Below are positions 14,476-59,833 of a stretch of DNA of 64,000 nt, piece by piece. The notes beneath the pieces were generated by a model. That model ran no database searches. It was not told the origin of the DNA and worked only from the letters and a program-made list of their open reading frames with translations. Source of the stretch: an uncultured cyanobacterium. Its GTDB lineage: Bacteria > Cyanobacteriota > Vampirovibrionia > Vampirovibrionales > JAGQHJ01. Where the stretch lies: NCBI GenBank assembly GCA_937922745.1, contig CALAJO010000035.1, positions 410-64,409 on the forward strand, given 5' to 3'. The translations under genes were made by a program, and so were the position numbers. Every line of letters begins with the position of its first letter. Position 1 is the first letter of the stretch.

Positions 14476-16179
14476 TTAGGACGGCTGCATTTTTGCAGCA
14501 AAAGCAGGCGGCATGGGATAGAACGCCCTGTTAACGGGAACCGCCGGATTAAGCCAGGGCTGGCTTAATGGTTGCATTGGAATACGAAACACCGGCTGCG
14601 GAGTTGGCTTTGCCTCCGGTGGTGGTTGTTGGCGCTTTTTTCGTTTTACTTGCCACTCGGTCCACTTAATGGCCAGGTAGGGTTCGGCGATGCCTGTGAG
14701 GAAGAGCGATAAGGCCAGGCTTCCCGCGCTGATGAGGATAAATTTGCCAAGGGTGCCCGCATAAGTGGAAAGCGGTTTGGGCAGCAGTTTCTCAATTTCA
14801 ATACGGCGCTTCAGGATGCTGCCGCCATTGCCGCTGGGCTTCATCATATTTTTATCTACCAAGCCGGCAATAAAGCGTTTGGCCAACGGGGTCATCAGGA
14901 TCCACAGGCCCCAGCCCAGGAAGGAGTCCACCATGCGCTCGCGATACTCAATCTCGCTGCGGGCCGCAGTAAGCCGGGAGAAGATGAGAAACGCAAAACA
15001 CGACGCCATCTGTTGCGGCGTCGTGAATGGTAGGCCTTTTCCAAACTGCATCATAGAGCCCAGGCGTTTGAGGAAGTTTTTGGAGAAAGGATTGTTCAAC
15101 GCGTTGCGCCAATCCCCAAGCGAGAGCTTCACCGCATCGAATATGCCGAATGCAAACGGCAAGGGAATCAGCGCGCCCAGCAGGGGGCCGATCTTCCCTT
15201 CCTTCAACGATTGCGTGAGATAAGGGAAAAATTTCTCGGCGGCGTTTTTAGGCTTGGTTTCCGCTTCCTGCTTTTCCCTTAATCCCATTTCGCCGGGATA
15301 CATGGTTGTCCCATCCAATTTTCGGGTAATAAAGGTGTTGATATAGGGGACGGCCAGTGTCGCCGCCATGGCAAACCCTAAGCCAATCGGCAGACGCCAT
15401 TTGTTGACCTTCAAGGTTTCCGTAATGCTGTTGATGGCGCGTGTATTCCAGTTGCCGGCCTTGCCGGAACGCTTGCGCATAAACTGCACAAACCTGGTGG
15501 TATCGTCCAGCAGGTCATCCAATTGCACCGTGTGTTTCAACTGCTTGAACGAAACCACTTTGTCCAGTGTTTGCCGGTTGGGATTCAATAGTTTGGCAAT
15601 CTGTACGGCGGCATCCCCATTGCTCAGAGCGTTTTTGGCCTTCGGCGCCTGGTTCGCCAATCGGGTCATAATCTGGGCGATGGCCGGGCTGTGCTTCCTG
15701 GAAACGGTGTTGCTCAGGTTATTGATAAATGCGGCTTCATCCGGGCTTTGTTTCGCAACGGCCTTAAAAAATTCCATGGTTTCGTTACTGGTAAAGTGGT
15801 TGGCAAAGTTGGGCTTGCGGAACCGACTGAGTAGCGACGCCAGGCCGAAGGCCACTAATCCGCCGGACACATTATCCGTGAGGATCGACATCACTTCCCG
15901 AAATAAGCGCTCGCGGGCGGCGGACCAGTTGAGTTGTTTCTCCTGCACGCGGTCTTCCGGCTTGATGAAATATTGCCGGAACAGATCCATGCCAGTTCGT
16001 AGCAGCCCAAAGCCGCCCAAGTCCTCCAGAAACATCTCGCGCACCCTGTCCGCCTGGATCCATGATAATTTGCTGTCGATAGCGCCAATAGCAGCGGGTG
16101 ACATAAAGCCTTTGAACCGGGCAGCCTGCTGCACCGGCCTGTTGGGGATATTTTGTTGTACCGGGTTGAGGGTCGTCAT
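14476..16179 (-). CDS. Orphan multi-pass membrane protein with RFKG leader, downstream of a His-type attenuator
   Basis: 567 aa ORF with several hydrophobic segments, a Q/N/P-rich leader ending AARFKG and a Pro-rich tail; no family recognised. Confidence 0.85.
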   Translation of the reverse strand: MTTLNPVQQNIPNRPVQQAARFKGFMSPAAIGAIDSKLSWIQADRVREMFLEDLGGFGLLRTGMDLFRQYFIKPEDRVQEKQLNWSAARERLFREVMSILTDNVSGGLVAFGLASLLSRFRKPNFANHFTSNETMEFFKAVAKQSPDEAAFINNLSNTVSRKHSPAIAQIMTRLANQAPKAKNALSNGDAAVQIAKLLNPNRQTLDKVVSFKQLKHTVQLDDLLDDTTRFVQFMRKRSGKAGNWNTRAINSITETLKVNKWRLPIGLGFAMAATLAVPYINTFITRKLDGTTMYPGEMGLREKQEAETKPKNAAEKFFPYLTQSLKEGKIGPLLGALIPLPFAFGIFDAVKLSLGDWRNALNNPFSKNFLKRLGSMMQFGKGLPFTTPQQMASCFAFLIFSRLTAARSEIEYRERMVDSFLGWGLWILMTPLAKRFIAGLVDKNMMKPSGNGGSILKRRIEIEKLLPKPLSTYAGTLGKFILISAGSLALSLFLTGIAEPYLAIKWTEWQVKRKKRQQPPPEAKPTPQPVFRIPMQPLSQPWLNPAVPVNRAFYPMPPAFAAKMQPS

Positions 16180-16191
16180 TTTTCTCGCATC

Positions 16192-16330
16192 CTGTAAATT
16201 TACCCAATCAGAAAAGCCACCGTTTGATTCGGGAGAATGACGGTGGCTTCTGATTGGTCTTTACAGATTTTTTTAAAAAAGCAGCAACGGGCCCGTCATC
16301 TCCAACAAATGGTTGTGGTGATGATGGTGC
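16192..16330 (-). promoter_or_regulatory. Attenuator: protector, antiterminator and terminator hairpins
   Basis: Minus strand: terminator AAGCCACCGT(16249-40)/ACGGTGGCTT(16223-14) then TTCTGATT. GGAGATGACGG(16303-16293) can alternatively pair with CCGTCATTCTCC(16243-32). The His-codon segment CATCACCACAA can pair with TTGTTGGAGATG. Confidence 0.8.
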
Positions 16331-36869: not shown

Positions 36870-36880
36870 AACAGAACAAG

Positions 36881-36915
36881 AAAAGCCCCGGTTATATCAA
36901 CAACCGGGGCTTTTT
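36881..36915. terminator. Bidirectional intrinsic terminator
   Basis: aaaagccccggtt...aaccggggcttttt. Confidence 0.85.
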
Positions 36916-37039
36916 AGTGTGTTGAGGAGAGAGCGTCAATGAACAAGAGGTTACTGTATCGTGTTATCAGGAGAAACTTCCTGTCGGTGACGGAATCCCT
37001 GATTGGAAGCGGACTGTCCGCTTCCAAAAGTTAACTGGC

Positions 37040-58735: not shown

Positions 58736-58989
58736 CTTGAAATCCTCCTGCGCATTGATACCGTGTATATGCCACAGTAGCGGATCTCATCCGTATCCGG
58801 TACGCCAAAATGAGCAATCTTTTTAAAAGCCCTTTCTCTTTTGAGCAGAAAGATTGCTTTTGGATGGACTAACTACCACATATGTAACATTTTGTTAAAA
58901 CTTACGCACTGTCACGCATTTTTTACCCTTGAGGGTGCTTTATGTAGGAGCAAGGTGAAATACATAATGCATAAGACATTATAATCCTT

Positions 58990-59053
58990 GCATACTGCCT
59001 CTCTCTATCCGTTATCTCTTGCTACTTCCCCCCCTCAGCAAGAGATTTTTTTT
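58990..59053 (+). ncRNA. Candidate CU-rich small RNA
   Basis: TATAAT at 58980; pyrimidine-rich body; 10-bp stem atctcttgct/agcaagagat with a C7-containing loop and T-run; no + strand gene upstream. Confidence 0.45.
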
Positions 59054-59261
59054 GCGTATTTTTAGGTCCACTTATTTCAATTAATAGTGCAACTACAATT
59101 TGAGACAATTTTTATCTCTATCTTGTATAAGTTCTTGCGGCAATGCGCCTTAACAAAGGCTTGGTTTAAGGTGACTCAAGTATTATGATCACATTAGCCT
59201 GGCTGCAATACCTTCTTTCCCTTCTGATTGGCAGGCGGAAAGCGTTAGTTGGGGGGCGTAC

Positions 59262-59418
59262 AAAAAAGTACCCCCTAACACTAACGGAAAGGAGGTACCT
59301 CATGAATGGATGATAATACTTACCATTTACTGATGGTTGTGGTCATCATTCTAGCCCTACGTGGTTAACAGAGGCTAGGTGATCCGGAGAGGCGTCTGTT
59401 GCAGCAGGCGTCTTTCCA
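59262..59418 (-). ncRNA. Predicted antisense antitoxin RNA (about 155 nt)
   Basis: Minus-strand promoter at 59452-59424 and minus-strand terminator GTACCTCCT/AGGGGGTAC+T6 at 59298-59262 bracket the small ORF and its SD. Confidence 0.7.
59306..59368 (+). CDS. Predicted type I toxin, 20 aa MDDNTYHLLMVVVIILALRG
   Basis: Strong SD AAAGGAGGT (59288-96); hydrophobic core LLMVVVIILAL; anti-SD sequence upstream; downstream hairpin 59386-59417. Confidence 0.72.
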   Translation: MDDNTYHLLMVVVIILALRG

Positions 59419-59423
59419 CTTTC

Positions 59424-59452
59424 AGAATAGCGTATCGCTTGATAGTTATCAA
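59424..59452 (-). promoter_or_regulatory. Sigma-70-type promoter TTGATA-N17-TATTCT
   Basis: Near-consensus hexamers with 17-nt spacing, pointing into the small ORF from its 3' side. Confidence 0.7.
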
Positions 59453-59641
59453 TACAAATACGGTGTATTTTTAACATTTGTTGTATTGTTCGGTTCGTCC
59501 ATTCTAAAAGATACTTGAATCACCCATAAAAACCGTATTGATTGGATCTTCCACTTGGAATCCTTATGAAACTGCCAACCTGGATAAAACTAGGGCGTGC
59601 TGAAATACGGTTAAATAGGATCAACCCCAGGAGGCCATGCC

Positions 59642-59833
59642 ATGGAGAAAGACCAACAACCAAGAACGGAAACGATCTTTACGCAATCCCTGTCCCCCAG
59701 GATTGACCAGGACGCATTGACAGTGGATGGCGATAGCCCGCTTCCCCGGCCGATGACATCGGAGGAGTTGCATAACCCGAAAACGGCCAAGGAAATCCCC
59801 AAGCGGGATATGGATACCGATCTGGGCGCGTAA
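59642..59833 (+). CDS. Small acidic hypothetical protein
   Basis: AGGAGG RBS, 63 aa. Confidence 0.65.
   Translation: MEKDQQPRTETIFTQSLSPRIDQDALTVDGDSPLPRPMTSEELHNPKTAKEIPKRDMDTDLGA

Follow-up and report, generated by a model that had tools for sequence, protein, structure and literature searches.

We analyzed a 64,000-nt stretch of DNA (hereafter the window; + and - denote its two strands) from a genome of an uncultured, predatory-type, non-photosynthetic cyanobacterial lineage, and found a compact locus (locus A) which recurs, part for part, at a second place in the same genome (locus B). Our reading, held with about even confidence, is that A and B are paralogous, self-contained modules of type I toxin-antitoxin design that belong to a lineage-restricted family. 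A sequence-only reading had proposed such a module at locus A; its toxin-mRNA part is supported and is strengthened by locus B, where an antisense terminator recurs as well, but the antisense promoter that it had invoked is at chance level.

Architecture of Locus A

Locus A sits within 906 nt of gene-free, low-G+C sequence. The 20-aa hydrophobic ORF that had been described behind a strong Shine-Dalgarno sequence (SD) is present on the + strand at 59306-59368 (MDDNTYHLLMVVVIILALRG, 20 codons, stop TAA), and its SD, AAGGAGGT at 59289-59296, sits inside a longer strand, GGAAAGGAGGTA (59286-59297). An upstream anti-SD, TACCTTCTTTCC (59209-59220), pairs with that strand through 11 Watson-Crick pairs and one G-U, in agreement with the complementarity claimed earlier. 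Between anti-SD and SD sits an inserted hairpin (59243-59286) with an A6 loop (59262-59267), which is absent from locus B and whose 3' half and A-run encode the - strand terminator of locus A. The domain is closed by a helix in which a 5' arm (59187-59205) pairs with a 3' arm directly 3' of the ORF stop codon (59369-59384), with 16 pairs, one of them G-U, in the minimum-energy fold. Within this helix, the 5'-3' pairing that had been proposed for the locus takes the form of GATCACATTAGCCT (59187-59200) against AGGCTAGGTGATC (59372-59384), with 13 pairs, a one-base bulge and one G-U.

Past the SD come three ATGs, each in its own frame (59302, 59306, and 59310). The first, 6 nt past GGAGG, has the best SD spacing and opens only the mini-frame ATG-AAT-GGA-TGA (59302-59313), which reads MNG-stop just as the sequence-only reading stated and competes with the ORF, whose ATG at 59306 lies 10 nt past GGAGG; this is a caveat on translation of the ORF. 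The mini-frame overlaps the start region, which is not evidence of coupling, and the ATG at 59310 opens a 7-codon frame. The start codons are held in a hairpin within the ORF (59304-59351; 19 pairs, 3 of them G-U), in which the predicted unpaired probability of ATG 59306 is 0.19.

Beyond the closing helix, a 14-bp hairpin with 4 G-U pairs (59386-59417, +) is followed by ACTTTCAG. It is specific to the + strand (-21.4 kcal/mol on + versus -7.2 on -) and went uncalled by both terminator scans because its U-tract is weak. No convincing + strand promoter was found for locus A; the best candidate, TTGGTT-17-TATGAT, matches at 8/12 positions and would place the transcription start inside the 5' closing arm. 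A search for a promoter motif common to the flanks of A and B returned only 7-11-nt chance matches.

Three further inverted repeats involve sequence around locus A (window 59170-59190, 59304-59321, and 59495-59524). Just 5' of the closing helix lies a stretch with two possible partners, the start-codon region (13 nt, 92%) and sequence 130 nt downstream (14 nt, 93%), and the downstream stretch (the 59495-59524 repeat) can pair with the start-codon region too (10 nt). These repeats could represent alternative folds of a longer transcript, and a rough count puts them close to chance.

A Second Locus in the Same Genome

Further copies had been suggested as a check on the locus, and the search was rewarded within the genome itself, a 3.16-Mb assembly of 167 contigs that is 92% complete and from which the 3' end of the 16S rRNA is absent; it yielded none in 150 relatives. 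The octamer AAGGAGGT occurs at 64 sites in this genome, 20 of which precede ORFs of at least 60 aa. Outside long ORFs there are 22 sites, 6 preceding ORFs of at least 60 aa and 3 preceding ORFs of 10-59 aa, and two of those three short ORFs are hydrophobic and 20 codons long: locus A and locus B (G000:C155 22997-23175; L142 1498-1676). Locus B is flanked by a gene of unassigned kind and by a convergent SpoIIM-like gene.

The order of parts in locus B is the order in locus A. A 13-bp closing helix (GCTTCATTGGTTT/AGACTAATGAAGC), unrelated in sequence to that of A, has a 3' arm that spans the stop codon; the anti-SD CCTCCTTTCC is paired to GGAAAGGAGGTG (also given as CTCCCTCCTTTCC paired to GGAAAGGAGGTGAG); a start hairpin holds the ATG; and the hydrophobic ORF, MIEISILILSMTIFILVVKD, has 20 codons and a TAA stop. 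Then come one C, a 12-bp hairpin opening GGAG, and ACTTTTCT, together called as a terminator by the scan and again specific to the + strand (-21.6 kcal/mol on + versus -11.6 on -). Because B has its own terminator and a convergent gene downstream, A and B are best regarded as self-contained small genes.

The two loci have CCTYCTTTCC paired to GGAAAGGAGGT in common, and in both an ATG lies 7-10 nt past an 11-nt perfect SD; their sequences overlap just in the 11-mer GGAAAGGAGGT and in words of chance length. The descriptor CCTYCTTTCC-N25-70-GGAAAGGAGG finds only A and B in their own genome, and the reversed control finds 0. When a covariance model is built on A without B, B aligns to it along its entire length (13.8 bits, E 0.0024 in 6.2 kb), a score below significance at genome scale, where the own-genome search returns only A. 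Similarly, a model built from B alone returns only B from the genome, and aligns A through the 3' hairpin alone (14.4 bits). For a joint A and B model, the MAFFT and model alignments both left the helices out of register, and the covariation support consists of two sequences, both from one metagenome-assembled genome.

By eye, the - strand of locus B (C155, from about 23022 down to 22955) carries GGAAAGGAGG and, 9 nt further on, a frame of 15 codons, MKLLLFQSSGVALLP. The SD on this strand arises because the anti-SD of B, read on the opposite strand, makes a perfect SD; the frame, which has no counterpart in A, is probably due to chance.

Predicted Fold Strength and Sequestration of the Shine-Dalgarno Sequence

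The + strand of locus A (59187-59425) folds at -100.6 kcal/mol (z -6.79), and the fold beats all 200 shuffles (shuffle mean -67.7, 0/200 as good). On the - strand, the same span reaches -73.1 kcal/mol (z -2.42), with 5/200 shuffles as good; the fold belongs to the + strand because many of its pairs are G-U. The core alone (59187-59384) has a z of -5.29, and the helices persist when 561 nt are folded. Locus B folds at -86.3 kcal/mol (z -5.36). The other strongest folds in the window, at 16170-16260 and 36880-36920, are ordinary hairpin terminators between genes.

In both loci, SD sequestration is extreme as modelled from the fold: GGAGG has an unpaired probability of 0.001 (A) or 0.000 (B), whereas control genes with a GGAGG SD (n = 110, all that were found) have a median of 0.258, with the 5th percentile at 0.003. 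Additionally, the genome has 11 small hydrophobic ORFs that follow an SD and fall outside long ORFs; a strong fold (z -7.2 and -6.6) together with a buried SD is seen in A and B only, the remaining nine having a z no lower than -3.2 and SD unpaired probabilities of 0.04 to 0.41.

Signals on the Opposite Strand

The - strand of locus A encodes a terminator-like hairpin with a U6 tail (59262-59298) whose 5' arm is antisense to the SD: GUACCUCC (59298-59291) pairs with GGGGGUAC (59275-59268) across a loop of 13-15 nt, after which the U6 runs from 59267 to 59262. The antisense terminator claimed earlier is real in sequence (-17.9 kcal/mol on - versus -9.1 on +), and the simple terminator scan missed it because of the long loop. 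It recurs at the equivalent place in locus B, where a 12-bp stem on the - strand, with a 5' arm antisense to the start codon and SD, is followed by UUGUUUUAU (-17.6 kcal/mol on - versus -13.4 on +). In both terminators, a C-A mismatch on the + strand becomes a G-U pair on the - strand. Each is the sole such - strand site in its surroundings (58900-59700, 800 nt, for A; 540 nt for B), in a genome with 0.27 permissive terminator sites per kb per strand, and an opposite-strand terminator within -80 to +20 was found at 5 of 627 ordinary SD-bearing gene starts. Crossed, strand-specific terminators in A and B are therefore the mark expected of two overlapping convergent transcripts, and the recurrence of the - strand terminator supports, at the level of sequence, a putative overlapping antisense RNA. 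These hairpins could instead act on the + strand as weaker, local SD-sequestering hairpins (-9.1 and -13.4 kcal/mol), a reading which leaves their U-runs unexplained.

The near-consensus antisense promoter of the sequence-only reading fared less well. The string TTGATA-17-TATTCT is there, running from 59452 to 59424 on the - strand, but it matches at only 9/12 positions and is no better than chance: the window has 0.76 matches of at least 9/12 per kb per strand (by promoter rules that may not be those of the host lineage), and a simple scan gave 2 promoter-like sites versus 2.6 expected. The match has no positional counterpart in locus B, where 8/12 candidates lie at least 55 nt beyond the hairpin. 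From the promoter-like site and the terminator we infer an antisense RNA of about 155 nt in locus A (59262-59417, -) that would reach from the 3' hairpin across the ORF and its start codons to the SD, and this RNA would need its own promoter because the genes to the right lie on the + strand. In locus B, transcription coming from the convergent SpoIIM-like gene would meet the - strand terminator before any other terminator-like site, and the antisense RNA there may be the 3' untranslated region of that gene.

The opposite strand is also where the most serious alternative has to be weighed, namely that each locus encodes a stand-alone, harmless 20-residue membrane micro-protein (for example an accessory or regulatory subunit), with an mRNA that is strongly structured by chance and opposite-strand signals that are incidental or belong to the neighbours. 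A micro-protein gene would account for the ORF, SD and 20-codon length common to A and B and for an antisense promoter at chance level in A, and the - strand terminator of B may simply end the convergent SpoIIM-like mRNA. Locus A, however, has no convergent gene nearby and still has its - strand terminator. Moreover, the SD is buried more deeply in A and B (0.001 and 0.000) than at the 5th percentile of the controls (0.003), and a closing helix on top of this is unexpected for an ordinary small protein. The two loci are also missing from syntenic or neighbouring regions of family relatives, a patchiness that fits a selfish module better. We regard the micro-protein explanation as doubtful.

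The Predicted Peptides

Peptides A and B, at 20 aa each, have GRAVY values of 1.09 and 2.01 and longest uncharged runs of 11 and 15 residues, respectively, at the lower limit for a membrane span. They are identical at 4/20 positions (M1, L9, I15, and L16), and position 19 is basic in each. From its sequence, the 20-residue peptide would probably insert into a membrane, and its features correspond to the short (<60 aa) hydrophobic toxin with a membrane-spanning stretch which, in the account consulted, is given as a criterion for type I systems (PMC12390103). Neither peptide matched any Pfam or NCBIfam family, in profile searches that are weak on 20 residues, and no Rfam match fell on the element, in line with the earlier statement that the peptide could be assigned to no named family. 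A search with peptide B of its own genome (G000) and four family genomes (G001-G004) returned only itself.

The polar N-terminus and hydrophobic C-terminus of the peptides could partly be a by-product of complementary hairpin arms, and a further explanation takes this to its end: the loci would be two copies of a non-coding structured RNA, with the SD-like strand, the ATG and the frame all by-products of the helices. The peptide is indeed tiny and without a protein family match, its N-terminal acidic codons are complementary to hydrophobic codons of the same hairpin, the start in A is ambiguous among three ATGs in three frames, and AAGGAGGT alone is weak evidence of a gene start, since 20/64 of its sites precede ORFs of at least 60 aa. 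Yet at near-zero identity both loci keep the SD, the ATG, exactly 20 codons, the TAA and a hydrophobic core, and no Rfam family matches, so that a purely non-coding RNA appears quite improbable.

Genomic Context and Distribution

Locus A is flanked on one side by a divergent FAD-oxidoreductase-Rieske (DAO-Rieske) gene and on the other by a 63-aa gene and two M10-TPR peptidase genes. The DAO-Rieske neighbour was found in 0/4 family genomes and in 2/30 relatives (50% identity), and had no close match in metagenome contigs. The 63-aa protein (window 59642-59833, +) is acidic, probably disordered, preceded by a strong SD, and matches no Pfam family; a homologue in one family genome (G003; 53% identity, E 4.5e-11) ends in the same C-terminal motif, DMDTDLGA. 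The two tandem matrixin (M10) peptidase genes with TPR tails (window 59921-62108, +) have relatives in 30/30 related genomes searched, with up to 6 matches per genome. At locus B, the SpoIIM-like orthologues in two family genomes (G004 and G002) have no B-like locus downstream.

Although locus A lies 220 nt upstream of the conserved, same-strand 63-aa gene and the weak U-tract of its 3' hairpin would allow read-through, it is highly improbable that the element acts in cis on the 63-aa and two M10-TPR genes, as a leader or attenuator encoding a leader peptide. This reading was rejected because a called terminator and a convergent gene lie downstream of B and the orthologues are without the element, the 63-aa orthologue in G003 having about 100 nt of plain spacer upstream and the M10-TPR pair in three family genomes having a different gene directly upstream.

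A strongly conserved small RNA (window 58992-59054, +) lies 130 nt upstream of locus A. Its 5' part, AUACUGCCUCUCUCUAUCCG, is CU-rich and single-stranded; after it come a 9-10-bp stem whose loop is C-rich and a U8 terminator. This RNA is detected by blastn at 79-92% identity in 25/60 relatives. In a 26-sequence alignment, the stem is invariant except for one compensatory change; there is no Rfam match. Several family f3 genomes have the CU-rich small RNA about 700 nt beyond an M10-like gene. As a candidate antitoxin acting in trans it was rejected, its predicted duplexes with the starts of A and B falling at the 10th-22nd percentile of 1500 ordinary gene starts.

Beyond locus B, searches for relatives of the element returned little. 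Against Rfam, the locus region gave 4 weak matches at E up to 10, none on the element, and the whole window gave 0 at the gathering score. Searches with locus A by blastn, tblastn and blastn-short returned only the locus itself from its own genome, and blastn in 60 relatives gave one stray 32-nt match to the flank (E 0.007). The A covariance model yielded one partial match (15 bits, E 0.4) in 150 relatives of the class Vampirovibrionia, plasmids gave 0 matches, and phages gave 1 at E 0.3. The descriptor CCTYCTTTCC-N25-70-GGAAAGGAGG, which is specific to A and B in their own genome, found 0 sites in the 150 relatives, and TACCTYCTTTCC-N50-80-GGAAAGGAGGTA-N3-8-ATG, a narrow pattern that would miss B-type loci, found 0 in metagenome contigs and 0 in genome contigs. 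A looser descriptor combined with a 20-codon frame matched in 2/150 relatives, versus 3 control matches, and neither was a 20-aa hydrophobic ORF. In viral contigs, the pattern search gave 8 loci, 0 with a small hydrophobic ORF and 6 being an SD before an ORF of at least 70 aa.

A Model for Expression and Repression

Sequence features, predicted folds, strand specificity and the recurrence of the arrangement in B are the basis from which we infer both transcripts, translation from ATG 59306, toxicity and an activation step. In the toxin-antitoxin reading, the + strand would yield a roughly 230-nt mRNA that encodes a hydrophobic peptide of 20 residues. Because the anti-SD lies upstream of the SD, the SD would be captured as it emerges from transcription, and the mRNA as made would stay untranslated, with its start codons in a hairpin and a 5'-3' helix closing the whole domain. 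The - strand RNA, about 155 nt long in A, would stop at its own terminator just past the SD and, being fully complementary to the ORF and the ribosome-binding site, could block an mRNA once opened, or target it for cleavage. The peptide would then be made only if the mRNA is opened and the antisense RNA is scarce. Opening would probably proceed via loss of the 5' part: the 3' closing arm lies upstream of the stable 3' hairpin, and therefore 3' trimming is an unlikely opener and 5' loss the likelier one.

A more specific version, which we think unlikely to hold in full, is that A has a dedicated antisense gene, that the antisense RNA of B is the long 3' untranslated region of the convergent SpoIIM-like gene, and that the two represent the first type I family of the Vampirovibrionia. 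If this were true, the toxin would be among the shortest known, and release of the B toxin would be tied to expression of a housekeeping neighbour. More generally, a family in this lineage would widen the range of type I systems and would show that SD/anti-SD pairing combined with crossed terminators can find loci that sequence searches miss. Together, A and B offer a ready pair for studying the toxicity of a 20-residue peptide and the division of repression between mRNA lock and antisense RNA.

Comparison With Known Type I Systems

The descriptors of type I toxin mRNAs that are set out for T1TAdb include SD/anti-SD pairs, 3' terminator stem-loops, and long-distance 5'-3' interactions (PMC8594479), and this architecture is found in both A and B. 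According to the account in PMC12390103, type I systems have so far been described among Proteobacteria, Firmicutes, and Tenericutes, to which 2025 added a first candidate from the cyanobacteria, and the narrow range of phyla is thought to be due to homology-based searching. Comparison with Ibs/Sib and Hok/Sok, to which the sequence-only reading likened the locus, concerns mechanism only because the peptide is without relatives.

The Ibs peptides of Escherichia coli are 18-19 aa long and almost wholly hydrophobic. Ibs/Sib thus resembles A and B in having a very short hydrophobic peptide and more than one copy per genome and, as described in PMC12390103, an antisense RNA overlapping the ORF and base-pairing to the ribosome-binding site, as proposed here. 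It differs in phylum, and the anti-SD helix and the 5'-3' closing helix are extra features of A and B. No Pfam, NCBIfam or Rfam match links the loci to Ibs/Sib, by profiles that are weak on 20 residues.

Hok is about 50 aa long, its frame is overlapped by a leader frame (mok), and an antisense RNA, Sok, is directed against the leader region; Hok and AapA peptides are 30-50 residues long, and only the 5' region is covered by their antisense RNA. Hok/Sok and AapA/IsoA are like A and B in that, in the accounts cited, the full-length mRNA is locked by SD sequestration and a 5'-3' interaction (PMC8594479; PMC6733600). In hok the closing partner is the extreme 3' end, and trimming takes it away, whereas the partner in A and B lies upstream of a stable 3' hairpin. 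With a peptide of 20 aa and no Pfam or Rfam match, the loci do not group with Hok/Sok.

For DinQ/AgrB, TisB/IstR-1 and ZorO/OrzO of E. coli, translation requires that the 5' part be lost from a primary transcript that as made is inert (for DinQ, as described in PMC5066626), and similarly, removal of the anti-SD and 5' arm would open both A and B. The antitoxin RNAs of these three systems are encoded apart, divergently, and act through short complementarity, and no such direct repeat is found at locus A. Closest in phylum is MsoT1/MsoA1 of Microcystis aeruginosa, a candidate type I pair from Cyanobacteria which was also found via features, not homology (PMC12390103). It comes from a photosynthetic class and was tested in E. 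coli, and is likened to A and B by its published description only (PMC12390103). Among the literature matches listed, there was no report of a type I system in Vampirovibrio or Melainabacteria. By analogy, the nearest known system is Ibs/Sib for peptide size and the full overlap of the proposed antisense RNA, and Hok, AapA and DinQ for the logic of the mRNA.
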